Part shown: piece after piece, positions 41,172-59,301 of the stretch
Position numbering within the stretch: position 1 is the first letter of the stretch
Layout: the number at the start of each line of letters is the position of its first letter
Assembly: GCA_022841985.1 (NCBI GenBank)
Contig: JALHQL010000006.1
Span: 16-64,015 of the forward strand
Origin: Minisyncoccota bacterium
GTDB lineage: Bacteria > Patescibacteriota > Minisyncoccia > Phycocordibacterales > Phycocordibacteraceae
Direction: 5' to 3'
Length of the DNA: 64,000 nucleotides
The notes under the pieces: model-generated
What the model was told of the DNA's origin: nothing
Databases searched by the model: none
What the model saw: only the letters and a program-made list of their open reading frames with translations
Translations under genes and position numbers: made by a program

Positions 41172-41579
41172 TTGCCCCTACCACTTATAATTGATGCGAT
41201 GAGGGAAACCCAGAGAAAAGGAGACGTCGCTGTTTCGCAAGCGATTGCAACATTTACAAAAGCGGGTTATGACGTCTCTGTTCCCCTTACAGAATCAGCT
41301 GCATATGATTTAATCGTGGAGAGGGACGGATTGATAAAACGGATACAGGTAAAATATTCGACTAGTGGAGAGGTTGACCTTCGTAGAATTCATTCAAACT
41401 CGACTGGGTATGTTGTTAAGAAGCCTAAAAAAGGCGCTTATGATTGGATTTACGTCTTTAAAGCCCTCTCTGAAAAAGAGTATCTTATTATCGACTGCCC
41501 TTTCGGTCGGCGGTCGATAACACCTGGAGTTCAGCATTCTATTAAAGTCGTACTGAAACAATTAGGAGGGGTCGCATAG
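41172..41579 (+). CDS. small PD-(D/E)xK-like nuclease-fold protein (Hjc-type or restriction-endonuclease-like). Tentative.
   Basis: AAYDLIVERDGLIKRIQVKYS fits a D...E-x-K core. Its 3' end overlaps the tRNA-Ser 5' end by about 15 nt. Confidence 0.35.
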   Translation: MPLPLIIDAMRETQRKGDVAVSQAIATFTKAGYDVSVPLTESAAYDLIVERDGLIKRIQVKYSTSGEVDLRRIHSNSTGYVVKKPKKGAYDWIYVFKALSEKEYLIIDCPFGRRSITPGVQHSIKVVLKQLGGVA

Positions 41580-41653
41580 TTGGTCTAGTGCAGTGGACTT
41601 GAAATCCACCGTACCGTAAGGTACCGCGAGTTCGAATCTCGCCCCCTCCGCCA
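41565..41653 (+). tRNA. tRNA-Ser (anticodon TGA) with encoded CCA. Integration target of the adjacent island.
   Basis: ggagggg...cccctcc acceptor, anticodon loop ctTGAaa, long variable arm cgtaccgtaaggtaccg, T-loop ttcgaat, then gCCA. Confidence 0.85.
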
Positions 41654-43147: not shown

Positions 43148-43169
43148 AATATTGTATTGGCAAACGAGT

Positions 43170-43289
43170 GAGCCACGCGGAGCGTGGAAAAACCTTTTGA
43201 ATTCGGGAATTCTTGGCGGGAATGCGTTTGTGTCGGCGCTTCGCGCCGACCCCATTTCGGCTTCCAATTCCGATTTCCAATTTTGGCGG
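43170..43289. repeat. IR1-R, inverted copy of IR1-L, ending in GGCGG
   Basis: Perfect 120-bp match to the reverse complement of 41648-41767. Confidence 0.9.
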
Positions 43290-43558
43290 TGTGTATTGGA
43301 CGAAGTTCGAATGTATTTCGGACAAAATCCGCAGGATTTTGACGACTAATCGCACGCGCGGAGCGCGTGGTGGCTTGAAACTGCATTGTACGCTCCGATA
43401 CTGTGCCAACACGAACGAATGCGCCTCGGACACGCTCGCGGACTCGCGTGTGCAAAAACCAAAAAATTTCCTTGCATTTTTCTCGCGTCTCCTCCCCCCA
43501 CCCCTCCACCGCGAAGCGGAAAAAGAAATGGAAAGGAAATTTTTGGTTTTGCTTCGCC
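43285..43558. repeat. IR2-L, a 274-bp structured repeat starting at the shared GGCGG core
   Basis: Reverse complement matches 49219-49492 almost exactly. It has internal hairpins (cacgcgc-gga-gcgcgtg, caaaatcc-gcag-ggattttg) and an internal inverted copy of ggaaatttttggtttt. The ORFs predicted inside it are artefacts of repeat DNA. Confidence 0.85.
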
Positions 43559-43662
43559 GTAGCCATAACAATATTATTTTGCACACTTGTATTATAACTT
43601 AACATTGAGTCAAAACACAAGAGAGTGCTATAATTAACCATGTTGATAAGTTTTTATATAAT

Positions 43663-43872
43663 ATGGCAAAATCCACAGCACAAAAATTTGGTGAGAACAT
43701 GAAAAAGATACGGCTCGAAAAAGGTATGTCGCAAGGCGACATTTGCCGTGAGTTAGGGTTAGACCGAGCGTATATTAGTAATGTTGAGAATGGCAAACAA
43801 AATCTTACCATTAGCACAATGGAAAAGGTCGCCAAGGCGCTGAGTGTGAGTATTGATATACTTCTGAAATAA
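43663..43872 (+). CDS. XRE/Cro-type HTH protein, probably the controller (C) protein of the restriction-modification system
   Basis: 69 aa. MSQGDICRELGLDRAYISNVENGKQNLTISTMEKVAKAL. Directly upstream of the M and R genes. Palindrome ttgagtcaa lies about 40 nt upstream. Confidence 0.65.
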   Translation: MAKSTAQKFGENMKKIRLEKGMSQGDICRELGLDRAYISNVENGKQNLTISTMEKVAKALSVSIDILLK

Positions 43873-43879
43873 TAATCAT

Positions 43880-45544
43880 ATGGCAAAGTTAAAAGACACC
43901 CCAAAACATGATAGACCTCGCGAGAAATTTCTCGAAAAAGGAAGCGACGCTCTGACCGACAGTGAGTTGTTGGCTATTTTGCTTGGAAGCGGTATCAAAG
44001 GAACCAACGTCAAATTACTTGCACAAAAAATATCTCGAAAATTTGGTGACAAGCTCATGGATGCGACAGTGGAGGATCTCGTACAGATTCCGGGTATCGG
44101 AAATGCCAAAGCTCTGCAAATTGCCTCAATGTTTGCACTGGCAAATCGAATGTATGAAAAGCACAACGGGGATGAGGAGCACAAAGTATTATCGGCGCTT
44201 GATGCAGCACGATTAGTCCCCGAATTAAAAACCGCAAAAAAGGAACATCTGGTTTGTCTTTACCTTAATGCACGAAGTGTATTGGTTCACAAAGAGATTG
44301 TTTCAGTTGGCACATTGGACAAAAGTATTATTCACCCCCGAGAAGTTTTTGCGCCTGGACTTGAAAAGCACGCCGCGAGCGTCATAGTTATTCATAATCA
44401 CCCATCAGGCGACCCTTCACCGAGTGACGAAGATAAACAAGTTGCCGCTCGAATTGTCGAAGCAGGCAAAATTGTCGGTATCAACGTACTTGATTTTCTT
44501 ATTATCGCGGAGCGAGGTGTACACAGCATTCTCGCAGAGTTGCAAAAAGTTGAGCCGAAAGCAACCGATTATGTTGCCGAAGGCAACCAAGGATCACTTT
44601 TTGATCTGCTTGTGGATTCTCGCCATATGTATTTTCTCGGAGTAAACGATAAAGCACCCGAACCTATAACAAAAACCAAACATAAGTTTATCGATCTCTT
44701 TGCAGGTATTGGTGGTTTCCATGTTGCCTTTCATAATGCGGGCGCTGAATGTGTGTTTGTGTCCGAATGGGACGAAAAAGCGCGAACTACGTACAGACAC
44801 AACTTTTATAAAGTATCTCCCGATATATTTAGAAATGGCAATTTCGTTGGCGATATCACTAAGGTGAACGAAAAAGAAATGCCTGATTTTGACATCATTA
44901 CGGGCGGCTTTCCTTGCCAGCCATTTTCACAAGCAGGTTTCAAGAAAGGTTTTAATGAAGCACGCGGCACATTGTTTTTTGATGTAGTTCGCCTTATGAA
45001 AGAAAAGAAACCTAAGGCATTTTTCCTTGAAAACGTGCGGGGTCTTTACGCACACGATGGAGGAAAAACATTTGAAACAATTAAGCGCATCATTGAAGAA
45101 GATCTCGGCTATTCATTCCATGCAAAAATCATTAAAGCATCAGATTTTGGTATGCCACAACACCGTCCGCGTTTGTTTATGGTCGGTTTCAGGGACGGAC
45201 ATGATTTTGAATGGCCCGAACCAGTCAATGAATTGAAATACACAATGTCCGATATTTTCGGTGGAAAGTGTAATAAAGATGTCGGCTTTACACTTCGTGT
45301 AGGAGGTCGCGGAAGCCAGATCACTGATCGACGCAACTGGGACGCGTATCGCGTGGATGGAAAAGTAGTCCAGCTCGGACCTAAAGAGGGCTTGAAAATG
45401 CAAGGATTCCCCGAGTGGTTTGAGTTTCCTGAAGATGTATCGTCAGTACAGTCTATGAAGCAGCTCGGCAACTCTGTCGCTGTACCTGCAATTCAAGCTG
45501 TTGCGGAAAGAATAATTGAAACACTAGAAAAATATGACAAATAA
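43880..45544 (+). CDS. fusion protein of an N-terminal RadC-like JAB/MPN domain and a C-terminal C5 cytosine DNA methyltransferase
   Basis: RadC HhH (VQIPGIGNAKALQI) and JAMM motif (IVIHNHPSGDPSPSDED). MTase motifs I FIDLFAGIGGFHVAF, IV GGFPCQPFSQAG, VI ENVRGL, VIII QHRPRLFMVGF, X KQLGNSVAVP. Confidence 0.8.
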   Translation: MAKLKDTPKHDRPREKFLEKGSDALTDSELLAILLGSGIKGTNVKLLAQKISRKFGDKLMDATVEDLVQIPGIGNAKALQIASMFALANRMYEKHNGDEEHKVLSALDAARLVPELKTAKKEHLVCLYLNARSVLVHKEIVSVGTLDKSIIHPREVFAPGLEKHAASVIVIHNHPSGDPSPSDEDKQVAARIVEAGKIVGINVLDFLIIAERGVHSILAELQKVEPKATDYVAEGNQGSLFDLLVDSRHMYFLGVNDKAPEPITKTKHKFIDLFAGIGGFHVAFHNAGAECVFVSEWDEKARTTYRHNFYKVSPDIFRNGNFVGDITKVNEKEMPDFDIITGGFPCQPFSQAGFKKGFNEARGTLFFDVVRLMKEKKPKAFFLENVRGLYAHDGGKTFETIKRIIEEDLGYSFHAKIIKASDFGMPQHRPRLFMVGFRDGHDFEWPEPVNELKYTMSDIFGGKCNKDVGFTLRVGGRGSQITDRRNWDAYRVDGKVVQLGPKEGLKMQGFPEWFEFPEDVSSVQSMKQLGNSVAVPAIQAVAERIIETLEKYDK

Positions 45545-46625
45545 AACTAAAACAACTCTCACAGGTAACAAAGGCGAATGGTCTGAGTTCTATGCCTTTA
45601 TTAAAATCCTGACTGACGGGAAAGTTTTTACTGCTGACAAAAATCTAAAAATCCTTGAGGAACATTTTCATATTGTCCTAAAAATTATCCGACAAGAAGC
45701 GATTGGAAAGAAAGAATACGACATCTCAAGAAACGATGGCAAAGTTATTGTATCTGATGAAAATGCAGAGATATCAATAATTGATCTTGAAAAAATCAAA
45801 GGGAGTGTCGCCAACGTTTTTGAGCAAATTAAAAATTCCAAAGGCACGACATTTGAAGTCGCGAGCGCGGCAAGTCCGATGCACGATCTTCACTGTACTC
45901 AAATGCGTGCTTCGAGTGGTAAAAAAGCCGACTTGACCATTGTTCTGCATGATAAAAAATCTCCCGAATTCCCAGAACTCGGTTTCAGTATCAAATCAAT
46001 GCTCGGTTCTCCGGCAACACTCCTAAATGCTTCTGGTGCTACAAATTTTCTATACCGCATTGCAACAGAAGATAATAAGCCCGTACAAAGTAGTGATGAT
46101 ATGTCGGTGAGAGATGCGACAAAACTGACGTATGGTGTCGGTGCACAACTTGAGTTTATTGGAATGGATAGCGATGTTTTCCGTCGTAATCTGCGAAAAA
46201 TTGATTCCATATTTCCCGAAATAGTTGCTCAAATGTTGCGACATTACTACATGGGAGAAGCGACTACAATCAATGATCTCGCAAACAAAATTGCAGATGA
46301 TTCCGTCTTTATGGAGCGAATCGACTTTACCAAAGAAATGCTGATAATGAACATCAAACGTTTCCTATCAAGCATTGCCCTCGGAATGATGCCAAGCAAA
46401 GATTGGGACGGATACACCGAAGCGCATGGCGGATATATCATCGTTAAAGAAGACGGTGATGTTGTCTGCTACCATCTCTATAACCGCGACAAATTTGAGG
46501 ACTATCTATTCCATAACACAAAACTCGATACGCCTAGCACTACTCGTCATGGATTTGGGAAAATCTATAAAGAAAATGACGAACAAAGAATGAAGCTTAA
46601 TTTACAAATACGATTTTTGAAATAA
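45534..46625 (+). CDS. probable cognate type II restriction endonuclease (363 aa). Family not assignable by eye; an HpaII-like family is possible.
   Basis: Start overlaps the MTase stop (ATGACAAATAA). Size and position fit an R gene. No catalytic motif is confidently identified. Confidence 0.45.
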   Translation: MTNKTKTTLTGNKGEWSEFYAFIKILTDGKVFTADKNLKILEEHFHIVLKIIRQEAIGKKEYDISRNDGKVIVSDENAEISIIDLEKIKGSVANVFEQIKNSKGTTFEVASAASPMHDLHCTQMRASSGKKADLTIVLHDKKSPEFPELGFSIKSMLGSPATLLNASGATNFLYRIATEDNKPVQSSDDMSVRDATKLTYGVGAQLEFIGMDSDVFRRNLRKIDSIFPEIVAQMLRHYYMGEATTINDLANKIADDSVFMERIDFTKEMLIMNIKRFLSSIALGMMPSKDWDGYTEAHGGYIIVKEDGDVVCYHLYNRDKFEDYLFHNTKLDTPSTTRHGFGKIYKENDEQRMKLNLQIRFLK

Positions 46626-46803
46626 AAAATTGCCAGATGTTGTGTAAGCAAGACAATCGAACGAAGTTGGGGAAATAAGCCACAAAGCGAAAAGTGCTTG
46701 ATTTGTATTGATAAGAGAGTAATCCTTACTTTGGCGCTTGACTCCTTATTTTAAGGCGCGTATAATAGATACGCGGTTATTTATTTTACTTATCAATCAA
46801 TTT

Positions 46804-47031
46804 ATGGAAGAAAAATCATCGGTAAATAAGTCAAAAATTGAGAAAAAGATGAACGTTATCATTTCTTTGCTTTTGAAAATTGCAAATGATGGGGGTACGG
46901 TAAGTCTAAAAGAGCAAGTGCGTGACCTTGCCTCATTTGGTTTGGATTCAGCAGAGATTGCCGAAATTACAGGTAAAAAGGTGGGGCATGTTAGTAAAGA
47001 ATTATCAGTATTAAAAAAGGAGAGTAAATAG
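46804..47031 (+). CDS. mini HTH protein 1 (75 aa), first of four tandem paralogs
   Basis: MNVIISLLLKIA...FGLDSAEIAEITGKKVGHVSKEL. Lrp/AsnC-like or sigma70-region-4-like HTH. Confidence 0.5.
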   Translation: MEEKSSVNKSKIEKKMNVIISLLLKIANDGGTVSLKEQVRDLASFGLDSAEIAEITGKKVGHVSKELSVLKKESK

Positions 47032-47034
47032 CCT

Positions 47035-47256
47035 ATGGAAAACAAAAATGACATTTTACAACAAGTCTCGAAGAAACTGAGTATTTTAATCGCACTCCAG
47101 CTTCAGGGTGAGAATAAAGTGGTTGAGGTAAAAGAAAACGTGGAAAAACTTTCCAGATTCGGACTTACAGACAGTGAGATCGCAGAAATCCTCGGCACCA
47201 CAGCAGGTACCGTATCAGTTGCTAAAGCTAGAATTAAAAAAGCTAGATCAAAATAA
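47035..47256 (+). CDS. mini HTH protein 2 (73 aa)
   Basis: LSILIALQLQGE...FGLTDSEIAEILGTTAGTVSVAKARIKK. Starts 3 nt after the paralog 1 stop. Confidence 0.5.
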   Translation: MENKNDILQQVSKKLSILIALQLQGENKVVEVKENVEKLSRFGLTDSEIAEILGTTAGTVSVAKARIKKARSK

Positions 47257-47259
47257 AGT

Positions 47260-47436
47260 ATGGCAAAGAATAAACAAAATCGTGATCCCCTTGAAGACGT
47301 GCGAGAAACTCTAAAAAGTATTCTCGTACTAGAATTATTTAAGTTAAATATTCCGCAGGTGGATATTGCTAAAAAGTTGCGAATGGACTTAAACGCGGTG
47401 AATGCCTTCCTGAAAGGAATTAAGAAAGATAAATAA
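47260..47436 (+). CDS. mini HTH protein 3 (58 aa)
   Basis: LKSILVLELFKLNIPQVDIAKKLRMDLNAVNAFLKGI. Below the ORF-track size cutoff. atg at 47260, taa at 47434-47436. Confidence 0.4.
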   Translation: MAKNKQNRDPLEDVRETLKSILVLELFKLNIPQVDIAKKLRMDLNAVNAFLKGIKKDK

Positions 47437-47437
47437 T

Positions 47438-47602
47438 ATGGGTAGAAAAACTAAAAGCGAAAAACTGGAGCCTTTGGAGGAGATTAAACGACTACTTGTT
47501 CTCGGGCTTATAAATCAGGGCGTAAAAGGAAAAGACATCGCCGCCATTCTGGAGGTTGATCCAGCAATTATTAGTCGTTTGATTTCATCTACGAAAAAAT
47601 AG
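47438..47602 (+). CDS. mini HTH protein 4 (54 aa)
   Basis: IKRLLVLGLINQGVKGKDIAAILEVDPAIISRLI. atg at 47438, 1 nt after the paralog 3 stop. Confidence 0.4.
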   Translation: MGRKTKSEKLEPLEEIKRLLVLGLINQGVKGKDIAAILEVDPAIISRLISSTKK

Positions 47603-47605
47603 TAT

Positions 47606-48184
47606 ATGGCAGACCGACTCAACCCCGACATTATGGAGGTACTCGTTAAGAAGACGGATAAGACAGCCGAACAAATTCGTCCGCGCCTCTCTGAACTTCG
47701 TCGCAAGTATAGCGGTCTCACAATGAACGCTGCTGCTCAGATGTACGCACAATCGCACGGCACTTCCATTATGACGAAGCTTGACCAAGGCGACCGACAA
47801 TCGCTCGCTACGGTACAAGCAATTACTCAAGTGAGCGTATCCAGCGTTTCAAAGGTAGATAAACGCACGCTAAATATAAATAACTCGCCGATACATAACC
47901 TTTCATTTGGTGACCGAAATCAAATAAATCAAAGTGTTGTGACGCTCGACAATGCACTCACTGAGTTATCTGAAAAAATCAGCAAAAGCACAGTACTGAC
48001 TGACGACGAAAAGAATGACTACAAGTCTGATATACAAACTATTGCAAGTCAGGCTGGAAAAAGTAAACCGAACAGGCAAATCATCAAAGTAGCATGGGAG
48101 AGCGTTAAGGCGCTTGCGGACATAGAAGGCTTTGCCCAATTGGTCGGCAGGATTACTCCGCTTATTCAAGGATTTTTTTCATAA
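47606..48184 (+). CDS. hypothetical protein (192 aa), upstream partner of the HEPN-like protein
   Basis: Stop at 48184, next start at 48186. The N-terminus resembles the mini-HTH proteins weakly. Confidence 0.45.
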   Translation: MADRLNPDIMEVLVKKTDKTAEQIRPRLSELRRKYSGLTMNAAAQMYAQSHGTSIMTKLDQGDRQSLATVQAITQVSVSSVSKVDKRTLNINNSPIHNLSFGDRNQINQSVVTLDNALTELSEKISKSTVLTDDEKNDYKSDIQTIASQAGKSKPNRQIIKVAWESVKALADIEGFAQLVGRITPLIQGFFS

Positions 48185-48185
48185 T

Positions 48186-48887
48186 ATGTCTCAACGCCTT
48201 GATCCAATTCTATTAAAGAAACTTGCCGATAAAATTGGTAAGTCCATCAAATATACGCGCGAGCAAAATGCCAAACGTGCTTCAAGAGCGGGCGTTTCTT
48301 CCGAAGCCTATTTTTTATATTGGCTGAAAGAAAAGAAAATTGGCTTTCAAAAGTACAAGCGTTCTTTGCCTGTTGATGTTCAAAACGAAGCAAGAACACT
48401 CACAGGCACTCCACAACACACAACAAGCACCACATCTAATCGTGTGGGACACACCGAAACACTCACTGCTTCATCGCGCTATATCGATTTACTCGAAATG
48501 ATTCAGGATGATGAGCTTAGAGATAGATGTGCGGATCTTATAAAACGACCAAGGAATCATGACAGAGTTTTTAGAGAAGCCACAACTATTCTTGAACATC
48601 GGGTCAAGAATTTGAGTGGTATTACACAAAGAATGAACCCGCAAGCATTAATTGGGAAAGCAATTGCGCCTGATCCTGCGCGAGCTATTTTAGTGGTCAG
48701 CAGTGATTCCAGTGAGCAAGAAGGTTTTTACAAAATTTGCGCTGGTATTGAAGCAGCATTCCGCAACCGCACCCATCATGAAGTCTCGAACAAGCTCACA
48801 CGTAATGACGCGATAAAATTTTGTGGCTTCATTGACTCACTGTTACTTGTGCTTGTTAATGCAGAAGTACATCAAGAACGGATTTAG
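48186..48887 (+). CDS. protein with a C-terminal HEPN-like (Abi_C / TIGR02391-like) domain. Candidate abortive-infection RNase.
   Basis: C-terminal EQEGFYKICAGIEAAFRNRTHHE contains R-x4-H. Start atg at 48186. Confidence 0.45.
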   Translation: MSQRLDPILLKKLADKIGKSIKYTREQNAKRASRAGVSSEAYFLYWLKEKKIGFQKYKRSLPVDVQNEARTLTGTPQHTTSTTSNRVGHTETLTASSRYIDLLEMIQDDELRDRCADLIKRPRNHDRVFREATTILEHRVKNLSGITQRMNPQALIGKAIAPDPARAILVVSSDSSEQEGFYKICAGIEAAFRNRTHHEVSNKLTRNDAIKFCGFIDSLLLVLVNAEVHQERI

Positions 48888-49218
48888 CTAAAGGGAGCCG
48901 TCCACGTCAGTGGACGGGCTTCTGTGCGCGCATAGGGTGGGTGGGGCAAGCACATACAGATTTGTTTGTGCCCTAGCACAATCCATTTTTCTTTGAGTAA
49001 CTACTAACCTCTCTCGAAGTCACTGAGCGAACGCACACAACGCCGAAGCAGCCAGCGCGAGCGAATGCGAGCGGGCTATGTGTAGGCGGTTGTGTGTGTT
49101 CGCGGACGTTAGAGCTACTACTAAACGTCGCTATGGCACGCGCCTCGGTCGCCACAAGGAAATGGAGCAAACGGGCTTCAATGTGATAACTTTGTTGCCC
49201 TTTGTGGAGTTTCCTTGT

Positions 49219-49492
49219 GGCGAAGCAAAACCAAAAATTTCCTTTCCATTTCTTTTTCCGCTTCGCGGTGGAGGGGTGGGGGGAGGAGACGCGAGAAAAA
49301 TGCAAGGAAATTTTTTGGTTTTTGCACACGCGAGTCCGCGAGCGTGTCCGAGGCGCATTCGTTCGTGTTGGCACAGTATCGGAGCGTACAATGCAGTTTC
49401 AAGCCACCACGCGCTCCGCGCGTGCGATTAGTCGTCAAAATCCTGCGGATTTTGTCCGAAATACATTCGAACTTCGTCCAATACACACCGCC
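49219..49492. repeat. IR2-R, inverted copy of IR2-L, ending in CCGCC followed by A
   Basis: 274 bp. Base-by-base reverse complement of 43285-43558. Confidence 0.85.
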
Positions 49493-49672
49493 AGAAGTCC
49501 GAGTTAGAACCAAAGCAAAGTAAGGGTTTTAATACAACTAAACTCAAAATAAAACATCCATCTAAAATATGGGTGTTTTGCTTATTGGTGGCACTTATCC
49601 ACAATAGGGCACTTTACAAGAAAGAGATAATTGTATAGGATCATACTATCACTTAACAGCTATCATTAATTT

Positions 49673-51340
49673 ATGAAAAACACCGAGGAAAATAAAATTG
49701 AAACAATAGACATTACTCCCGATAAAAGCATTTATCACAAAATCGGGGAGGCAAATTACTCGATTTCTGACGCACTCGCAGAATTAGTGGATAACTCAAT
49801 TGATGCCGCAAATGACAATGGTGTCGAGATTTATATCGTTTTAGACAAGAAAGACGAGAAAATTGTCATTGAGGACAATGGAAAGGGAATGAGCAAAGAA
49901 ATAGCTTCAAAAAGCTTGGTACTAGCCCATTCTAAAAAGCACGAGGCACTAGGTGAATTCGGTTTGGGACTAAAGTCCGCATGCACCAGTTTAGGAACAA
50001 TCTTTTCTATAACAAGTACACCTGAAGGTTCTGAAGAAAGATACTCTCTTGAATATAATAAGGAACAATTTTTAAAATCAGATGACTGGCATCATTACCC
50101 TCTCGCAATATCAAAAGCTCCAAAAAATGAACACGGAACAAGAATAGAAATCAGTAATTTGCGAATAAAATTATATGACGCTCAAGTAACACGTCTCAAG
50201 GATGACTTAGCTAAAAGATATGGACCATACATTGAACACAACAATGTTGTCATTAAAGTTGGTTTAAAAAGAGAGACGGCAAAGCCTTGTGTGCCAAGTG
50301 AAATTAAACTCGTTGAAGGTTCGAAGAAAGAATTTTCATACATGCTCTCAAAAGGAGCCACCATTACAGGTTGGTATGGTTTATCAGAGGTCGGATCACA
50401 AAAACAAAGTGGTTTTAATATGTTTCGTAGGGGGCGTCTTATACGATCATCGGAAAAGCTTGGTTATAATTACCACCCACATCTAATGAGTATTGTCGGA
50501 GAAATTAATTTGGACTCCGTCCCAGTCACACATAACAAACGAGAATTTATTATTGAATCAGGGGAATTCAAAGAGTTTATTAAAGAATTCTGGGGTGATC
50601 AGACCGAGAAATATTTAGGCCAAAAAGTGAAGGGAATGATTGATGAAGTAACAAAGACAGCTAGAGATCGATCAAACCAAGAAAAAGCTGATAGCATGCC
50701 GACTGAAAAGAAAGAGACTATAAAAAATAACTTATTGAATGCTCTTAACCGACTAGACGAATTCAAAGAGCTGGCCTATCCAGATCTGTATCAACCTAAA
50801 AAAAGGTCTGCGAGCGGAAAAGAGGACCCAAAAGAATCAAGAGAAACTGATTTACGTGTAGCCAGGGAGGAAGAAATCAAACCTACAAAAGAGGAGGAGA
50901 GGGATCAGAGAACGCCCAAAAAAACACAACCAAAAACGGCCAAATTTATCATGGTTGGTGGAAAAAAATTCAAATTCGATTTCTTTTTGAAGAATTTGGC
51001 AAATGACACCATCGACAAAGAGACAGTTATCAATCAGGAAAACGTTATTGAAATATACATTAATACGGGATTTAAAGGTTACGGCTTGACGAAAGATTCT
51101 GATTTTTATTCTACTTTCCACATAGCAGAGGCGATTGCTGAACTTTATGTTAAAGAAGCTGGTCAAAAAATGGAAAGGGTCTTTGAATTACGAAACGGTC
51201 TTATATATGAAGTGGCGTCGTTAATCTATGAAGAAGAAGAGTATAAGAAACTAGAGAAGACTGAAAAAGAACTAGTCGCAGTAACTGAAAAGAGGAAAGA
51301 GTTGGAAGAAAAAAGAACAAGAACAAGTTTAAAAATATAA
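49673..51340 (+). CDS. GHKL-superfamily ATPase (HATPase_c_3, prokaryotic MORC-like) with a charged coiled C-terminal region
   Basis: N-box ELVDNSIDA, G1 IEDNGKGM, G2 GEFGLGLKSA. Confidence 0.75.
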   Translation: MKNTEENKIETIDITPDKSIYHKIGEANYSISDALAELVDNSIDAANDNGVEIYIVLDKKDEKIVIEDNGKGMSKEIASKSLVLAHSKKHEALGEFGLGLKSACTSLGTIFSITSTPEGSEERYSLEYNKEQFLKSDDWHHYPLAISKAPKNEHGTRIEISNLRIKLYDAQVTRLKDDLAKRYGPYIEHNNVVIKVGLKRETAKPCVPSEIKLVEGSKKEFSYMLSKGATITGWYGLSEVGSQKQSGFNMFRRGRLIRSSEKLGYNYHPHLMSIVGEINLDSVPVTHNKREFIIESGEFKEFIKEFWGDQTEKYLGQKVKGMIDEVTKTARDRSNQEKADSMPTEKKETIKNNLLNALNRLDEFKELAYPDLYQPKKRSASGKEDPKESRETDLRVAREEEIKPTKEEERDQRTPKKTQPKTAKFIMVGGKKFKFDFFLKNLANDTIDKETVINQENVIEIYINTGFKGYGLTKDSDFYSTFHIAEAIAELYVKEAGQKMERVFELRNGLIYEVASLIYEEEEYKKLEKTEKELVAVTEKRKELEEKRTRTSLKI

Positions 51341-51341
51341 A

Positions 51342-52754
51342 ATGAGTCAGACCCTTAAGCGAGCAAACGAATATTTTGGGGTAACTGAGTCTGACTATAA
51401 GAAGACTGGCGCATTTAATCCGGTCATCGGTGTAGACAGCTTATTTTTTGTAGATCCGCTACTGCTCTCTAAAACAAGAATACCTGAGTTCAAGGATGCT
51501 CAAAAAGAGGTGCGTGATTATTTTGCTAGTGTCATCACACTTATCAGAAGTGGTAATCAAAAAGCAAAAGCACTAGCTCACAAGAAACTTATTTTAAGAG
51601 AGGTTAGGGGTATCGGCATAGGTTACGGTAGTACATCTGATGATGGTTCCGCCATTGGTCCAAAACTTGCAAAACGTTTGTTAAATACTGCAGAGGAACT
51701 CATCCAGATGGGTATTACCGATCCAGCCATCTTTGAAGTCATGGGTCTTTTTGAGGAAGATTTTGGGCCAGATCGACTTAGTGACGGCTTGACACGCATT
51801 CTTCTCAAACGCGTCTGCCAATATTCTGAACGAATCACGAAAGAACTCAAAATTATAGATACATATACACTAACTACTTATGAGAGAAAGTACACTCTAA
51901 CAAAACACCCCCTTAAAGATGGGCCTTTGCTTTTCGTGCCCCAAGGCATATTGCGAGATCTCCCGATAGCGAATAGTTTTGAGGAGATTAGTGTAGTTGC
52001 AATTTTTAATGAAGATCTGAGAAAGAAATTTAATTCTATTCTGGCATCCTGTTTTGCTGGAGATAAAAATAAAAAGCCCAAGAAATCTGAAATTAAGAAA
52101 TATCTCCTAGAAACGAAAGATGGAATCAAAACAGTTGTTGCGGCATATCAGTCATGTAGTCCTGAATCGTATAATTTTGACACCGATCCTTCTGGTTTAT
52201 ATCTGTGGCTTGAGAAAGCAAAACAGTTAGCTCGTGAGAACCCAATTTCACTTCCATCAAAACCAAAACAAGGTGATATTGATGATGTGGTACAGAAAGT
52301 TATACAGGCATTTAAAAGAGGAATTGAATCTAAGGGTTGGTGGAAATCACTTTATAACGAGAGTAAGGAATCACTGAATGAAAGCCACGCAAGACATTTC
52401 TTTTATGCAACCGCGCTCTTGTATTGCGAAGCATGTGATATTGATATTTCACCCGAATCAAATGCTGGTCAAGGTCCAGTAGATTTCAAATTGAGCCGTG
52501 GTCACAAAAAGATAGTTGTTGAAATAAAATTAACTTCAGGACATGTTCGACAAGGTTATGAAAAACAAACACGAATATATGAAGAAAGTGAAGATGCTGA
52601 AGCTAGTTATTTCCTTGTTGTTCAAGTAACAGAGAAAAGTAAAGTTCTGCAAAAGGTGCTTAAAATGGAGGAAGTGGAAGAAAAGGAGGGTAAAAAACAC
52701 CCGACAATCGTAGTTGTGGATGGGCGAGAGAAACCGTCAGCAAGTCACGCCTAG
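51342..52754 (+). CDS. partner protein (470 aa) with a C-terminal PD-(D/E)xK nuclease-like motif
   Basis: GQGPVDFKLSRGHKKIVVEIKLTSG fits PD...(E)xK. Start is 2 nt after the GHKL stop. Confidence 0.5.
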   Translation: MSQTLKRANEYFGVTESDYKKTGAFNPVIGVDSLFFVDPLLLSKTRIPEFKDAQKEVRDYFASVITLIRSGNQKAKALAHKKLILREVRGIGIGYGSTSDDGSAIGPKLAKRLLNTAEELIQMGITDPAIFEVMGLFEEDFGPDRLSDGLTRILLKRVCQYSERITKELKIIDTYTLTTYERKYTLTKHPLKDGPLLFVPQGILRDLPIANSFEEISVVAIFNEDLRKKFNSILASCFAGDKNKKPKKSEIKKYLLETKDGIKTVVAAYQSCSPESYNFDTDPSGLYLWLEKAKQLARENPISLPSKPKQGDIDDVVQKVIQAFKRGIESKGWWKSLYNESKESLNESHARHFFYATALLYCEACDIDISPESNAGQGPVDFKLSRGHKKIVVEIKLTSGHVRQGYEKQTRIYEESEDAEASYFLVVQVTEKSKVLQKVLKMEEVEEKEGKKHPTIVVVDGREKPSASHA

Positions 52755-52924: not shown

Positions 52925-53106
52925 CGTCACCGCCGCGAAGCGGAAAAAGAGGAAAGGAAATTTTTGGTTTGCCTGCGCGAGTCCGCGAGCGCGGTCGAGG
53001 CGCGTTCCAGCGCAATCGGAGCGTACGCTTCGGGTTCAAGCCACCACGCGCTCCGCGCGTGCGAAGTGGGTTCGAGCAAAGGTGATACACTCACCGCCTC
53101 AAAAGA
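52925..53106. repeat. third, degenerate IR2-family copy, ending in CACCGCC
   Basis: cgcgaagcggaaaaagaggaaaggaaatttttggttt...gcgcgagtccgcgagcg...ccaccacgcgctccgcgcgtgcg...caccgcc aligns to IR2 with indels. Confidence 0.6.
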
Positions 53107-54261: not shown

Positions 54262-54371
54262 TTTCAGTCGATTCGCGTTTCTCAATCAAAGCCCCAAGTG
54301 GAATTCAATCCGCTTGGGGCTTTCACTTTTTCTAAGTGATATTGTGCGAAGTATGGTGTTACACTTTCCTT

Positions 54372-55292
54372 ATGGATGCTGAGGCGGCAAAACGACAGTT
54401 TCTTGAATATATCGAGATTGAACGCGGCCGTGCAGTAAAGACTATTGAGAATTATGACCGCTATCTCACCCGCTACTTCACCCAGATGAAGATACAGAAC
54501 GTAAGCGGCATTAGCGAACAGAGTATTCGAGAGTTCCGCCTCTGGCTCAATCGGCAGCCGGGTACGGCTGCCGATTCCATGAAGCGCCGCACTCAGAATT
54601 ACTACATGATTGCACTCCGCGCCTTTCTCAAGTTTCTCCGAAAACGCGATATTGCTGCCATTTCTCCTGAGAAAATAGAGCTTGCGAAGCTTCCTGAGCG
54701 ACAACTTGACCTTATTACTTCTGCCGAACTAGAACGTCTTATACAAGCACCTAGAGAAGCATTTAAGAAAGAAAAAGACCCTGACAAAGCAAGGTCCTAC
54801 TTGCGAGATACTGCGATTCTCGAACTATTATTCTCCACCGGTCTGCGCGTCTCCGAGCTCTGTGCACTCAATTCTGATATTGATTTAACGCGCGACGAGG
54901 TTTCGGTGCGCGGCAAAGGCGAGAAAGTCCGTGTCGTATTCCTCTCCCCTACTGCGAAGCAGGCTGTACGCGAATACCTCAAGGCAAGAAATGACATGGA
55001 AGAAGCTTTGTTCGTAGATGGCAGACCAAACAAATTGCACCGCATCATCCCCCGCGACGTCCAACGGCATTTGAAATCATATGTAGCGCGGGCGGGTATC
55101 ACAAACGTCGTTACGCCGCACACCCTCCGTCACGTCTTCGCCACAGATCTTCTGACTAATGGCGCCGACATCCGCTCTGTCCAACAACTCCTCGGTCATG
55201 CTTCCATCAACACGACCCAAATTTACACACACATCACTGACTCGCACCTACGAGAAATCCATAAAAAATTCCACGGACAGAAACGCACATAA
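54372..55292 (+). CDS. tyrosine site-specific recombinase, XerC/XerD-like
   Basis: N-terminal SAM-like domain, and the catalytic C-terminus HTLRHVFATDLLTNGADIRSVQQLLGHASINTTQIYTH. Confidence 0.8.
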   Translation: MDAEAAKRQFLEYIEIERGRAVKTIENYDRYLTRYFTQMKIQNVSGISEQSIREFRLWLNRQPGTAADSMKRRTQNYYMIALRAFLKFLRKRDIAAISPEKIELAKLPERQLDLITSAELERLIQAPREAFKKEKDPDKARSYLRDTAILELLFSTGLRVSELCALNSDIDLTRDEVSVRGKGEKVRVVFLSPTAKQAVREYLKARNDMEEALFVDGRPNKLHRIIPRDVQRHLKSYVARAGITNVVTPHTLRHVFATDLLTNGADIRSVQQLLGHASINTTQIYTHITDSHLREIHKKFHGQKRT

Positions 55293-55338: not shown

Positions 55339-56277
55339 TTATTGTGGAGGAAGATCGTTCGAAGATTCGGTCGTTGAGTCGGCAAGCGGCGGATCGGACG
55401 GAGTCGTCTCATCAGTTTGGCTAACTGGTGGAACAGTTATCGCACCATCTTCTGACGGGGGATCATTCTCAAGAGACGGCGTTTCTGTTAGCTCAGACGA
55501 GGAAGTCTCTTCTTTCTCTGAATCCTCAATCGGCGGAGCTGGATTAGTCGAAATTTCCTCGATCGTCAGGGAATCTTCAAGACTTTGAGTAAGTTGAGGC
55601 AAGGGGTCCGTTTGAGTTATCGGGGCAATTACCGGAAGATCGGCGGTAAGAGTGAGGACGATATGTTCTGTATCGTGATACCCAGCCCCAGCCGTCCCTC
55701 CCTCTTGATAGGCCTCGTACTTGAGATCGAGCACGCATTTTTGACCATCAACGACTCCTGGAGCTGGACTTGGCAGAGAAAGCGCGAGAGACCATGGAGT
55801 AAATGCGCTGGTATCGATCGTGGAAAACGAAACTACTGAGCCCAGGTAGGCTAGGGGATCGCTTCCCGCTGCGTTAATGGCGGCACAAAACGTCGCATTG
55901 CCCGAAGCGGTGCCAGAAACCTTATATCGCATCGGGAGAGAACCAACTACAGGAGTTGGAGTAAGTACAAATGTTTCTCCTGGCTGAGCAAGAAAAAGTG
56001 TTGCGGAGTCACGGTCAGACGTCACCGTGAAATCAAGCGGGCCCGCTGCAAATGTATTTCCAGTCGACTGCTCATTGTCCCTGAAATAAGAGCTGGTCCC
56101 TCCTATCGAAAGAAGCGTCGGGACCGCGATAACCGCCAAGAGAGCAATTGCGACGATTGGTGAACGATGTACTCGTTTCTCTATGGGCGTAGAAACTGTT
56201 ACCCGACGAGGTATAAACATGTCCGACATGTCCGACGACCGCTCGTACACTATCGTTGTGAAGGGTATCTTTTTCAT
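55339..56277 (-). CDS. TasA/camelysin-family secreted protein with a SipW-cognate-class signal peptide. True start may be Met at 56229 or 56220.
   Basis: AIALLAVIAVPTLLSIGGTSSYFRDNEQSTGNTFAAGPLDF matches the SipW-cognate signal motif. Confidence 0.6.
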   Translation of the reverse strand: MKKIPFTTIVYERSSDMSDMFIPRRVTVSTPIEKRVHRSPIVAIALLAVIAVPTLLSIGGTSSYFRDNEQSTGNTFAAGPLDFTVTSDRDSATLFLAQPGETFVLTPTPVVGSLPMRYKVSGTASGNATFCAAINAAGSDPLAYLGSVVSFSTIDTSAFTPWSLALSLPSPAPGVVDGQKCVLDLKYEAYQEGGTAGAGYHDTEHIVLTLTADLPVIAPITQTDPLPQLTQSLEDSLTIEEISTNPAPPIEDSEKEETSSSELTETPSLENDPPSEDGAITVPPVSQTDETTPSDPPLADSTTESSNDLPPQ

Positions 56278-56840
56278 GATAAAAATTCTCTCTCTTCTTT
56301 CGTAGAGGATTCAGGTTCTACATATTTACGCCTGCTTCGCAGAGTAATTTTTATTTCACGCGCGATACCTATTGCCTCGTAGCAGATAATGAGTGCCGCA
56401 GGTATAGCAATAAGAAGAGCGAAGCCAAGCTGGGTTTTACTAAACGCAAGAATATAACCTGCGTAAGGGAGCGAGAAGATGACACGCCCAATAACTTTAT
56501 TTGCAGGCGTTTCGCTAGGATCGACATCTTCGTTCGCGTCTCCTTTGGTCTCAAAGTACGTCATATCCCCTTCAGTACGTATCGATACAATACGATGCGT
56601 CGTCGGTATCGAAGTGCGGGTATCGTCGCCAAAAGTTATTACATCACCCGCTTTGTAATCAGTCGCCGGATGTATGAGGATCAAACTCCCTGTCAATATC
56701 GCGGGCTCCATCGAGCCTGAACGCACAATTTTCAACTCATAGGGATTAAGTAAGCCGAGATGGGGTGCCACAAGAAAAGCAACCGCCCCGAAAATAATCA
56801 GAGCAAGGAGCGTATTCAGGATGATATTGACGACCTTCAT
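56274..56840 (-). CDS. sipW: signal peptidase I, archaeal/SipW type
   Basis: SGSMEP box (RSGSMEPAILTGSLI), N-terminal TM segment, C-terminal TM segment. Embedded among TasA-like genes. Confidence 0.75.
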   Translation of the reverse strand: MKVVNIILNTLLALIIFGAVAFLVAPHLGLLNPYELKIVRSGSMEPAILTGSLILIHPATDYKAGDVITFGDDTRTSIPTTHRIVSIRTEGDMTYFETKGDANEDVDPSETPANKVIGRVIFSLPYAGYILAFSKTQLGFALLIAIPAALIICYEAIGIAREIKITLRSRRKYVEPESSTKEEREFLS

Positions 56841-57835
56841 GACTTTTTACTCCCGAACAGACCCCAACCGAACGAGAATGGGAAACTGAATCCATTTTTA
56901 TTACTTGTTTGGCGCCACACATCACTATTTCCACTAGTGGGTTTGTTGTTATTATTTTTCCCGGGTGCTGTGTCACTTCCACCCGAATTCCCTGGTCCTG
57001 TGCCAGGACCATCATTCCCGGAATTCCCAATACCAGGAGGAGGCGGGTCCTCCCCATTCCCCACCCCATTGTTCCCTTTTGGCGACTTATCATCACAAAC
57101 GAACTTCGGTTGATCTTTTGAACTTACCGCTCGAATAAGCACGTCGACTGAAAATGAATCTGTCTGCGCCGCATTTCCGAGCACACCTCCATCACATTTC
57201 ATTGCGCCAGTTTTAGAATTCACGGTGAGATTCCCCGTGCACCAACACATCCCAACGTACTTTGTCTTCCCTTGTTTGATAAAGCTATTGTTTTTCGAAT
57301 CTCCGACGGCGTACGTTTTATTATTTAATACATGTAGCGCTTGTTGTATCGTCGTGCCGAATATTGTTTCCTCACTTGGCGGCTCGAATTTTCCATCGCC
57401 ATCATCAATCCATCCGTAGAATTCCGTGCCCGCCGCGAGCTCTCCTGAAACATTTCCATTTGGATCCACGAGTGCCTCTGGTTCGTTTATACCGCTTTCA
57501 TCGTTCTTCATGTTCTTGAAGTCGATGCACGCATATGCGTCTGATTTTTTTGCGTGAATGCTTATCACGTTACACCCGAAGTCGCCAGGCTTCACATCGT
57601 TTAAATTAAAGAATTTATCGACGCCTGGCGTGAGATCTTTGAGTGCCCATGTCGCAGACGGAACTGACACGCCGTTGTACCATGCTTTGCTATCTATTTT
57701 TAGATCAAGCTTTGTTGAAGTAAACGACGCTGTCGCCACCGTGTCTCCTGGCACAAATGATGCTGCAGTACCGGCAAACACCATCATCCCAAGAAGGATG
57801 ATGGTGCGCTTGCCGATGATGCGTATTGGGCTCAT
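56837..57835 (-). CDS. TasA-like secreted protein, divergent paralog with a Gly/Asn-rich C-terminus
   Basis: Signal peptide MSPIRIIGKRTIILLGMMVFAGTAASF, KLDLKIDSKAWYN similar to the IDLKVDN of its paralogs. Confidence 0.5.
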   Translation of the reverse strand: MSPIRIIGKRTIILLGMMVFAGTAASFVPGDTVATASFTSTKLDLKIDSKAWYNGVSVPSATWALKDLTPGVDKFFNLNDVKPGDFGCNVISIHAKKSDAYACIDFKNMKNDESGINEPEALVDPNGNVSGELAAGTEFYGWIDDGDGKFEPPSEETIFGTTIQQALHVLNNKTYAVGDSKNNSFIKQGKTKYVGMCWCTGNLTVNSKTGAMKCDGGVLGNAAQTDSFSVDVLIRAVSSKDQPKFVCDDKSPKGNNGVGNGEDPPPPGIGNSGNDGPGTGPGNSGGSDTAPGKNNNNKPTSGNSDVWRQTSNKNGFSFPFSFGWGLFGSKKS

Positions 57836-57852
57836 GACGTTATGTCATTGCA

Positions 57853-59301
57853 CTAGCTGCCAATGTCGTCGTTTGTTATTGTGCAGGTGATAGATTCACC
57901 CTCATCGAGAGTCACTACACCACCTAAGACAGCGGGGCATTTTGCACTACCCATGATTGATGCAAAAGAATACCCGACCACTGCATCCTCATTAATGATG
58001 TGAGGGAAATTGGCTGTAACTCCTTGAGATGTATTTTGTGGTACTAACACCCCATCAATACGTAACTTGAACTGATTAGCCGTCTTGGTACCGCCATTGT
58101 CGTTAATTACATTCTTTATGAGCGTGATGTTTCCAGGCAGATCGTTATTTGTGATGGTGCAAGTCTTATTATCGCCCGCTGCAAGCGTAATACCTCCCTC
58201 GCTATCGCAATCGCCGCTAAACGAAGCGACGTAGCCTGCGACACCTGTCTCAGTCACGCTGTAAGCCCCAGGGACAACTGTAGTCGTTACTCCAGAAGTG
58301 ACTGGCGTAATGACGACACCGTTATCAACGAAGAGCTGATAGTCAGCAACGACATTGTTACCACCATTGTCATTCACAACCTGCTTTATAACCGTGATTT
58401 TCGCCGTACGAGTGTTGGTGCCGCCGCAAGAGAAGTTCGGATTGTTACGCGCCTGAACAGCACGGAATGCAACATCGACAGTAGCCTTGTCTGTTTGAGT
58501 GAGATTATTGAGAGCAGCCCCATCGCAAAGCAGGCCGGAATTAACGCTTGGATTTACTCCTTGACCGGCTGCTACGGGATTCAGAGATAAATTGCCGAAA
58601 CACCATCCTTTGGCGATGTAGACAGTCTTATTGGCAGGAATCGGACCTGGAGTTTGTGGTGTCCATACATTATGAGTGGGATCAGCAAGGGCAACTGAAA
58701 ACGGTGTTGATGTAGCGAGATTGTAGAGTGTTTGTACACCGTTAGAAATCGGATTCTCTCCGACTTCATACACATTATCTCCATCGTCTGCCCACCAGAA
58801 CATTTGAATGTTCTGTGCGAGTTCACCATCCCAGGTGTTGTTGATGTCCTCTGGGGCATCAGGAGTTACGAGCTCTGGTTCAGTCGAAGAGTTGTCATCG
58901 TTACTTGTGAGCGACAAATCCATACACACCCATGCATCATTCTGTACATGAAGCGAAATAGTGTCTTCACCTTCATCATCTGGCTTCATATCGTTGAAGT
59001 TGAAGAACAGGAGACCCTTGTCGAGGTCGCTCAAGGGGAAGGAGGTGTCGCAAGAGGTACCCGGAACTGGATACGCTGCACTACCCTGCCATTTCCAAAC
59101 TGGTTCCTCAGAAGTGCCAACGTTGGTACATTTTTTGAGATTGTAATAACTCTCGTTATCTACTTTGAGATCAATTGCGCCGGCAGCAAATGTGTTGCCG
59201 CTCGAAGTCTCAGAGTCCGAAAAGAATGCGCCTGTGCTTCCTATCGCAATGAGCGATATCGAAGCGATAATCACAGCGAGACTAGCGTACATGCGGTGCA
59301 T
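57853..59301 (-). CDS. TasA-like secreted protein, SipW-cognate signal class
   Basis: AIGSTGAFFSDSETSSGNTFAAGAIDLKVDN. Confidence 0.65.
   Translation of the reverse strand: MHRMYASLAVIIASISLIAIGSTGAFFSDSETSSGNTFAAGAIDLKVDNESYYNLKKCTNVGTSEEPVWKWQGSAAYPVPGTSCDTSFPLSDLDKGLLFFNFNDMKPDDEGEDTISLHVQNDAWVCMDLSLTSNDDNSSTEPELVTPDAPEDINNTWDGELAQNIQMFWWADDGDNVYEVGENPISNGVQTLYNLATSTPFSVALADPTHNVWTPQTPGPIPANKTVYIAKGWCFGNLSLNPVAAGQGVNPSVNSGLLCDGAALNNLTQTDKATVDVAFRAVQARNNPNFSCGGTNTRTAKITVIKQVVNDNGGNNVVADYQLFVDNGVVITPVTSGVTTTVVPGAYSVTETGVAGYVASFSGDCDSEGGITLAAGDNKTCTITNNDLPGNITLIKNVINDNGGTKTANQFKLRIDGVLVPQNTSQGVTANFPHIINEDAVVGYSFASIMGSAKCPAVLGGVVTLDEGESITCTITNDDIGS

Follow-up and report, generated by a model that had tools for sequence, protein, structure and literature searches.

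A true prokaryotic MORC ATPase and an adjoining predicted restriction-like nuclease in a Minisyncoccota bacterium: neighbours that do not recur as a pair in sampled loci

Prokaryotic MORCs in operons resembling restriction-modification (R-M) systems, together with nucleases of the restriction-endonuclease fold, were predicted in 2008 (PMC2292703), and a motif of the S5 domain, GhXhhpXXRhl, sets MORCs apart from the paraMORCs, which lack it (Iyer, Abhiman and Aravind, PMC2292703). A superfamily II (SF-II) helicase was found in ~70% of the MORC neighbourhoods, and a minority operon type combines a MORC with a restriction-fold nuclease or a methylase and has no helicase (PMC2292703). VcSduA/paraMORC3 (Shedu type I-D) is anti-phage in vivo and requires both the GHKL residue E27 and the nuclease residue K557 (PMC12137116). 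Beyond the comparative paper of 2008, our search for literature on bacterial MORCs in defence returned VcSduA and Mza-like predictions alone, and no experimental work on a true bacterial MORC was found in the searchable literature. Here we analysed two adjoining open reading frames, ORF1 and ORF2, in a 64,000-nucleotide (nt) stretch of contig JALHQL010000006.1 (positions 16 to 64,015, forward strand) of a Minisyncoccota bacterium (assembly GCA_022841985.1), hereafter called the window. ORF1 is a bona fide prokaryotic MORC and ORF2 carries a predicted PD-(D/E)xK nuclease domain. The original prediction took the two as a paired ATPase-nuclease system, and this claim failed its own refutation test of co-location, with 0 cross-matches in 119 loci of ORF2 relatives and 88 loci of ORF1 relatives.

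The features of ORF1 are listed below, with residue conservation taken from a 42-sequence family alignment and amino acids abbreviated as aa.

49673-51340, + strand: ORF1, prokaryotic MORC-family GHKL ATPase, 555 aa, by translation
49781-49807, + strand: GHKL motif I (N-box), ELVDNSIDA; E37, D40, N41 and D44 invariant
49874-49891, + strand: GHKL motif II (G1), DNGKGM; D68 and G72 invariant, G70 nearly so
49952-49981, + strand: GHKL motif III (G2), GEFGLGLKSA; G94, F96, G97, G99 and K101 invariant
50411-50443, + strand: MORC-specific S5-domain motif GhXhhpXXRhl, here GFNMFRRGRLI (aa 247-257); G247 and R255 invariant
50528-50545, + strand: basic-residue motif of the S5 domain, THNKRE (K289); T286 to E291 invariant
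50933-51337, + strand: conserved C-terminal module, a beta-rich domain (aa 421-500) and a long helix (aa 502-554)

GHKL motif IV includes a further invariant pair, G155-T156, and within GFNMFRRGRLI the residues F248, L256 and I257 are at least 90% conserved in the same 42 sequences. The Pfam search matched ORF1 to HATPase_c_3 (E = 1.5e-21), while its match to Morc6_S5 stayed below threshold. MORC3 was the best sequence match among solved structures, and in the alignment GFNMFRRGRLI falls on YGIMMYHRNRLI of MORC3 and THNKRE on its THNKQD. The AlphaFold2 model of ORF1 (predicted local distance difference test, pLDDT, 83.6) found its best structural matches in SMCHD1, MORC3 and MORC2, and these SMCHD1/MORC matches outranked Hsp90, MutL and the topoisomerases. 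All features that define a MORC sensu Iyer et al. (2008), namely the four GHKL motifs, an S5-fold domain with its conserved basic residue and the GhXhhpXXRhl motif, are present, and by every criterion of sequence and structure ORF1 is a bona fide prokaryotic MORC and no paraMORC. K289 is likely the sensor of the ATP gamma-phosphate. The original prediction of a MORC-like GHKL ATPase of 555 aa with complete Bergerat-fold motifs is therefore borne out and can be sharpened to a true MORC by motifs and structure; its coordinates and all of its motifs were reproduced, and the invariance of the residues in 42 sequences lies far beyond chance.

Past residue 300, the model and the alignment indicated helices to ~373 and a disordered charged linker at 375-420, followed by a conserved beta-rich globular domain at ~421-500 and a single long terminal helix at 502-554. 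The C-terminal region thus comprises more than the long charged coil described earlier. N464, Y479, E486 and R507 of the C-terminal module are invariant in the 42 sequences, and the module is the most conserved region of ORF1 among orthologs with differing neighbours. Many members of the ORF1 family carry C-terminal sigma-70 region 4 and DnaA-C helix-turn-helix (HTH) domains; no HTH domain was found in the ORF1 of the window itself. A search with the C-terminal 144 aa for other architectures returned two fragments only.

ORF2 was divided as follows.

51342-52754, + strand: ORF2, DUF8371/DUF8370-family protein, 470 aa, by translation and family match
51342-52241, + strand: N-terminal region (aa 1-300); D32, D38, E49, E87, D144 and D148 invariant
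52359-52751, + strand: PD-(D/E)xK nuclease domain (~aa 340-470)
52476-52487, + strand: catalytic core PVDF, containing D381
52515-52529, + strand: catalytic core VVEIK, containing E394 and K396

An alignment of 37 sequences, with members down to 31% identity to ORF2, shows D381, E394, K396 and Q409 as invariant, and the AlphaFold2 model (pLDDT 84) gives the C-terminal domain a BamHI/BstYI-like PD-(D/E)xK fold. Both the restriction-endonuclease core fold and the catalytic D...(D/E)xK residues of the PD-(D/E)xK superfamily are present in ORF2. The restriction-endonuclease-like core that had been proposed near the C-terminus of the 470-aa downstream protein was found with PVDF and VVEIK in place and with invariant catalytic residues, and it passed the proposed check of its nuclease fold by structure prediction.

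Searches of ORF2 against Pfam, NCBIfam and PDB sequences gave no match, the Pfam release used being older than PF28130 and PF28123. These two families (DUF8371 and DUF8370) are carried by P0001, a protein identical to ORF2, and by all full-length proteins among the 175 ORF2 relatives recovered in a large protein search; Mrr_cat also matches one ORF2 homolog. The DUF8371/DUF8370 family occurs in at least 562 species-level genomes of many phyla, and 28 IMG/VR viral contigs carry its genes. With the N-terminal 300 aa, 1080 clusters at 50% identity were retrieved, and the best 150 listed are nearly all 465-490 aa long, which indicates a uniform architecture. The N-terminal ~210 aa match the PADLOC candidate PDC-M36A over profile positions 6-218 of 457 (E = 8.9e-10). 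No solved structure matched the N-terminal region by sequence or fold, the sequences of solved structures returned only noise for ORF2 and its family profile (designed repeat proteins, vinculin), and literature searches on PDC-M36, DUF8370 and DUF8371 found nothing. From its motifs and predicted fold, DUF8371/DUF8370 appears to be a restriction-like nuclease family, in which the N-terminal region may be a sensor or regulatory domain.

The co-occurrence of the two genes was assayed in 80 genome, 9 hand-picked and 28 viral loci of ORF2 relatives and in 80 metagenome and several hand-picked loci of ORF1 relatives. Using tblastn, no match to ORF1 was observed in 88 ORF2-family loci and none to ORF2 in 85 ORF1-family loci; at least 75 of these first 88 ORF2 loci extend at least 1.7 kb upstream, and 44 of the 85 ORF1 loci extend at least 1.4 kb downstream, and are informative in this respect. 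Profile hidden Markov models, with matches up to E = 10 considered, detected neither a MORC or GHKL gene in 119 ORF2-family loci nor a member of the ORF2 family in 88 loci of the ORF1 family, and the positive controls of the two profiles recovered 121 and 89 self matches, respectively. In GCA_040384045.1, an ORF1 homolog (84%) and an ORF2 homolog (75%) lie on separate contigs. The recurrent co-location expected of a two-gene MORC-nuclease system was not found in the sampled loci. The named closest homologs of both proteins come from metagenome-assembled genomes of the Patescibacteria/Parcubacteria group, for example Giovannonibacteria, Pacebacteria and Adlerbacteria.

The neighbours of the ORF1 relatives were then compared. 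The nearest ortholog, in locus L214, is 97% identical in aa and ~92% in nt, and this locus aligns with the window from the attachment (att) core CCGCCAG to the ORF1 stop codon, beyond which it diverges wholly into a DUF2188 gene and a SMODS nucleotidyltransferase. The ORF1 orthologs of at least 66% identity have seven different downstream contents, ORF2 being one; the others, apart from that of L214, are as follows.

88% ortholog: ThsB_TIR and a 201-aa protein
85% ortholog: a 94-aa ORF
84% ortholog: a 92-aa protein and SMODS-AGS_C
73% ortholog (L095): Hypoth_Ymh
66% ortholog: AAA_15

Several of these downstream gene families belong to self-sufficient systems, namely CBASS, Thoeris and those of the AAA_15 ATPases. 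Across the wider ORF1 family, the same-strand genes that follow within 100 nt (41 of 70 loci) form over 15 clusters unrelated to one another; among them are proteases of trypsin-like and Clp-like type, HEPN_AbiU2, a PLD nuclease, DUF2130 and a RelA/SpoT protein of 1004 aa. A PADLOC scan of nine uncharacterised MORC-downstream genes gave no match, and a tenth, the RelA_SpoT protein, matched PDC-S33 only. Partner-specific divergence was sought across the regions of ORF1, and none was found. ORF1 is a conserved anchor gene directly behind an att scar, and the content past its stop codon is exchangeable among close relatives.

Three further observations concern the ORF1 genes themselves. In L214 (4057-5724) the ortholog is split into 353-aa and 129-aa ORFs by a frame break in the linker, either as a pseudogene or through a sequencing error. 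In 15 loci of L099-L169 a 70-105-aa gene (cluster c1) stands 2-30 nt upstream of the ORF1-family gene (e.g., L099 296-517 and L105 4751-4975), which is either long (673-686 aa, with C-terminal sigma-70 region 4 and DnaA-C HTH domains) or shorter (516-585 aa). Some variants of 500-544 aa have a 171-195-aa upstream gene instead of c1, and these differing upstream genes indicate that the MORC clade has several distinct operon layouts.

The closest ORF2 homologs (71-82%) sit 1-2 nt behind unrelated genes, except for L010, where the ORF calls used give a 14-nt overlap.

P0002, 82% to ORF2: type I HsdR and an HsdM/S fusion upstream
P0003, 81% to ORF2: HTH, N6/N4 methylase and ResIII helicase upstream (type III-like)
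P0012, 75% to ORF2: DUF2188 upstream
L010, 71% to ORF2: HsdR, HsdM and HsdS upstream

DNA homology among the closest ORF2 copies runs from ~10 nt before the ATG to the stop codon, and this confinement to the gene borders indicates that ORF2 behaves as a gene-sized cassette. A same-strand gene lies within 30 nt upstream in 21 of 81 ORF2-family loci and is missing in the other 60, and the copies of Clostridium and Aeromonas are solitary, each with its own Shine-Dalgarno sequence. ORF1 itself lacks a Shine-Dalgarno sequence too, which makes this comparison uninformative for the present clade. Clustering of the flanking ORFs of 88 ORF2 loci gave no universal neighbour; serine recombinases, at 9 loci, and type I R-M genes, at 5-8, formed the largest groups, and ~9 of the 88 loci stand inside type I R-M clusters of different phyla. 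The classical type II arrangement was not observed, as no methyltransferase lies between the border repeats that enclose ORF1 and ORF2; the one nearest to ORF2 is a RadC-Dcm fusion (43880-45544), which is paired with its own HpaII-type enzyme in a neighbouring element. In the inspected neighbourhoods of the Clostridium, Aeromonas and P0059 relatives, no directly adjacent methyltransferase was found either.

DUF8371/DUF8370 genes stand within or appended to R-M operons in L089, L175/L176, L010, L050, L051, L058, L060, L063, L079 and L088. In the type I operons the gene follows HsdS or stands on either side of HsdR, and in one case the operon is type III-like; the hosts are Patescibacteria, Bacteroidota, Campylobacterota and Chloroflexota. 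A role of ORF2 as the missing nuclease of upstream helicases was considered and rejected as unsupported; the HsdR of L089 retains a weak HSDR_N domain, and no domain could be assigned to the C-terminal half of the ResIII proteins. Separately, in related genomes a small DUF2188 gene (80-81 aa) was seen directly before different defence genes, the SMODS nucleotidyltransferase in L214 (5730-6711) and an ORF2 homolog in L006 (5753-7419), with a further locus in L178 (2379-4018), and in Patescibacteria such a gene may recur as an adaptor or leader of defence cassettes.

The setting of ORF1 and ORF2 in the window comprises the following features.

41565-41653, + strand: tRNA-Ser(TGA), whose 3' end carries the core CCGCCAAAA; presumed island integration site
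tRNA-Ser 3' end: site A, made of tRNA, core and R arm
41585-43267, - strand: large serine recombinase gene (Resolvase, Recombinase and Zn_ribbon domains), between sites A and B
41657-49487: younger inserted element between tRNA-Ser and ORF1
43169-43558, reverse orientation: site B, made of L arm, core and R arm
49219-49496, + strand: left border repeat, an L arm with the core CCGCCAGAA, ending in a pseudo-tRNA 3' end; site C, made of L arm and core, followed by the ORF1 leader
49497-49672, + strand: operon leader, ~90% conserved with the ortholog locus L214
49613-49641, + strand: promoter-like site TTTACA-17-TAGGAT, from a consensus scan; the consensus match does not imply function
~52930-53099, + strand: right border, in which the L arm recurs as a decayed direct copy with a pseudo-tRNA end (...CACCGCCTCAAAAG); site D, made of decayed L arm and core

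A tRNA-end-like sequence with a core related to the tRNA-Ser 3' end recurs at three further sites (B, C and D). The left border repeat is identical to the reverse complement of 43281-43558 at 277 of 278 positions (L arms), and the R arms are identical at 121 of 121. The copies at 49219-49496 and ~52930-53099 are direct and 83-90% identical in blocks, and the repeat-delimited module described earlier is confirmed, with these repeats enclosing ORF1 and ORF2 only. The left border repeat resembles an attR junction of the younger element, whose cargo comprises the serine recombinase, the RadC-Dcm fusion, the HpaII-type endonuclease, small HTH proteins and a Hypoth_Ymh protein, and the right border is probably an old att scar. 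In L214, ~170 nt with a tRNA-end-like scar separate the ORF1 leader from a tRNA-Ser(GGA), and the younger element is absent there. The GC content is 0.367 in ORF1 and 0.392 in ORF2, compared with ~0.50 in the first 41 kb of the window. We infer that ORF1 and ORF2 are what is left of the cargo of an older tRNA-Ser island, with the scars C and D as its borders, and that the recombinase-bearing element (41657-49487) was inserted later between the tRNA and ORF1. The repeat-delimited module shows that the two genes currently travel together and does not imply a joint function.

The explanation that we prefer, at about an even chance of being right, is that ORF1 and ORF2 are two autonomous defence genes on one transcript, placed in the variable cargo slot of a tRNA-Ser-associated island. 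By analogy with MORC2 and MORC3, ORF1 would be an ATP-driven, dimerising DNA clamp that acts alone. ORF2 would be a self-contained restriction-like DNase, in which the N-terminal ~300 aa sense or gate and the BamHI/Mrr-like PD-(D/E)xK domain cuts DNA; since most family members lack a partner gene in tight linkage, the nuclease is likelier to depend on DNA modification (type IV-like) or to be triggered by infection than to be a classical type II enzyme. Their juxtaposition would be a recent product of recombination that brings co-expression without obligatory cooperation.

Several observations weigh against autonomy and favour, at clearly lower probability, a functional two-component restriction-like system, in which a MORC dimer would clamp or scan invading DNA with ATP and recruit or license the ORF2 nuclease, ORF2 filling an effector slot held elsewhere by TIR, HEPN, PLD, protease or SMODS modules. 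A single base separates the ORF1 TAA from the ORF2 ATG (TAAAATG), with no terminator between them and a single promoter-like site ahead; the promoter and terminator scan was at background level, and only the conservation of the leader with L214 gives that site weight. By this spacing and the lack of a terminator, the two genes are co-transcribed and probably translationally coupled, and they are the sole genes between two att-like repeats, so that the island remnant holds just this pair. In the wider ORF1 family a same-strand gene follows within 100 nt in 41 of 70 loci, a tightly linked yet variable gene often with an effector-type domain; some of these genes are bare effector domains, 124-140-aa TIR proteins and 184-239-aa Clp-like or trypsin-like proteases, which look to lack a sensor of their own. 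A TIR gene is combined with MORCs that share as little as 38% identity, so that this pairing recurs across deep divergence; a pairing with TIR was also noted for paraMORC4 by Iyer et al. (PMC2292703). Cooperation of a GHKL protein with a nuclease has strong precedents, MutL-MutH on the one hand and on the other VcSduA/paraMORC3, which needs both activities. The sampling of co-location covered the best 80 loci per scan with flanks of up to 5 kb. However, the ORF1-ORF2 combination was not seen again in the sampled loci, the relatives of ORF2 are mostly solitary, and next to ORF1 orthologs of 84-97% identity stand other genes, the breakpoints coinciding with the stop codon. The conserved C-terminal domain of ORF1 shows no co-adaptation, several occupants of the slot presumably belong to stand-alone systems, and short same-strand gaps are common in compact genomes.

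The variable slot admits a broader and rather improbable idea, that MORCs of this clade form a generic front-end to which immune modules are attached interchangeably, the PD-(D/E)xK nuclease here and TIR, SMODS, HEPN, PLD or proteases elsewhere; the MORC would detect or clamp foreign DNA and then license the next module or gate its transcription. Another reading, which we consider unlikely, makes ORF1 a regulator or licensing factor: clamped on DNA where the operon begins, it would repress a toxic downstream defence cassette or set the time of its expression, in the manner of the BrxR/CapW-type regulators that sit upstream of diverse defence systems and of eukaryotic MORC silencing. The place of ORF1 as a conserved first gene behind a conserved leader and before hyper-variable content, and the C-terminal sigma-70 region 4 and DnaA-C HTH domains of many family members are consistent with such a regulator; the ORF1 of the window, however, has no HTH domain, and ATP-dependent clamps are not known to serve as operon repressors in bacteria.

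Still less credible is ORF2 as a back-up nuclease that guards defence machines driven by nucleoside triphosphates (type I and type III R-M, here the MORC) and fires once a phage anti-restriction protein inhibits the upstream partner, on the model of PrrC and EcoprrI. Among the closest ORF2 homologs there is tight coupling to the final gene of R-M operons, both type I and type III-like, and the placement inside type I R-M clusters (~9 of 88 family loci) spans phyla, but most members of the family are solitary or lie beside unrelated genes such as aconitase or DUF2188. Finally, a housekeeping DNA-repair pair of a MutL-like ATPase and a MutH-like nicking nuclease, outside any conflict system, is very improbable: GHKL-plus-S5 ATPases and restriction-fold nucleases do cooperate in mismatch repair, but the genes lie in a low-GC island (0.37-0.39 vs ~0.50) behind an att scar beside a tRNA gene, both families are patchy and horizontally transferred, their neighbours are R-M, TIR and SMODS genes, and the structure of ORF1 is closer to MORC than to MutL.

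Other parts of the window yielded observations of their own. The segment 41565-49496 consists of nested, near-perfect inverted repeats around the tRNA-Ser-derived core CCGCCA(A/G)AA: a 121-nt inverted pair flanks the serine recombinase gene and a 278-nt pair (277/278) flanks a 5.7-kb cargo segment. This arrangement looks like an attL, inverted attP and attR layout, and it could represent invertible segments, tandem integrations or an assembly artefact. The cargo holds a type II R-M pair (43880-46625) in which the methyltransferase overlaps the start of the HpaII-family endonuclease (E = 5.9e-107); the methyltransferase (43880-45544, 554 aa) is unusual in that a RadC-like JAB domain, with UPF0758_N and HhH, is fused N-terminally to a C5-cytosine methylase. 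Two small tandem ORFs at 46738-47256 (97 and 73 aa) are alike by eye (they were not aligned) and end in ...FGL(D/T)S(A/E)EIAEI(T/L)G..., the second with a weak match to a sigma-70 region 4-like helix-turn-helix. Two overlapping ORFs at 47606-48887 have N-terminal regions similar by eye (likewise not aligned) and different C-termini; one (192 aa) has weak PADLOC PDC-M14B matches, and the other (251 aa) matches Hypoth_Ymh/TIGR02391. The low-GC island has at its edge a gene for a 135-aa PD-(D/E)xK protein (41172-41579; Pfam PDDEXK_5, E = 2.6e-18), which directly precedes tRNA-Ser. On the - strand at 55339-59301, a SipW-type signal peptidase accompanies TasA/camelysin-like secreted proteins with SipW-type signal-peptide motifs, one of which has SpaA-like prealbumin-fold repeats, and a XerC/D-type integrase adjoins at 54336-55292.

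What the locus means depends on the reading. If the genes are independent, it is an ordinary piece of a defence island, with a value mainly for annotation: a true MORC, not a paraMORC, is identified in the candidate phyla radiation, and the DUF8371/DUF8370 family, often found within type I R-M operons and prophages, receives a first pointer to its structure and function. Of more interest is a by-product, the MORC as conserved first gene, with its stop codon as a recombination boundary beyond which diverse immune modules are exchanged. Should this MORC-slot pattern reflect function, it would offer a testable bacterial model for the action of MORC ATPases on foreign DNA, and should the front-end idea hold, control of foreign DNA by MORCs would be an immune logic common to bacteria and eukaryotes.

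Compared with known systems, ORF1 has a weak match to MzaB of the Mza system (Gao et al. 2020) in its GHKL N-terminal region (NCBIfam 1.1e-10, PADLOC 7.4e-08); at 40.6 bits against a cut-off of 850, and with no other Mza genes (MzaA, C, D or E) found in the PADLOC and NCBIfam scans, it is not assigned to Mza. ORF2 is a full-length DUF8371/DUF8370 member, whereas its likeness to PDC-M36A is limited to the N-terminal half. In contrast to nucleases of the BamHI/BglII/BstYI type and the Mrr type, ORF2 has no adjacent cognate methyltransferase and has an N-terminal domain unrelated to the DNA-reading domains in the PDB. Compared with eukaryotic MORC2, MORC3 and SMCHD1, ORF1 lacks CW, chromo and hinge domains and has a different C-terminal module, and a clamping or silencing role would be carried over from them. 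The locus resembles VcSduA/paraMORC3 in combining a GHKL ATPase with a PD-(D/E)xK nuclease, but VcSduA joins a DUF4263 nuclease to a paraMORC without the MORC motif in one polypeptide, whereas here there are two genes and a true MORC; no DUF4263 match was found in ORF2 with Pfam or PADLOC, which sets it outside Shedu. Unlike most MORC neighbourhoods of the 2008 survey (PMC2292703), the ORF1 locus has no SF-II helicase, its nuclease family (DUF8371/DUF8370) differs and the pairing is not conserved. What ORF1 shares with the prokaryotic MORCs of R-M-like operons described there (PMC2292703) is the set of GHKL motifs, the S5 domain with its basic finger, the GhXhhpXXRhl motif and a mobile, defence-type context.

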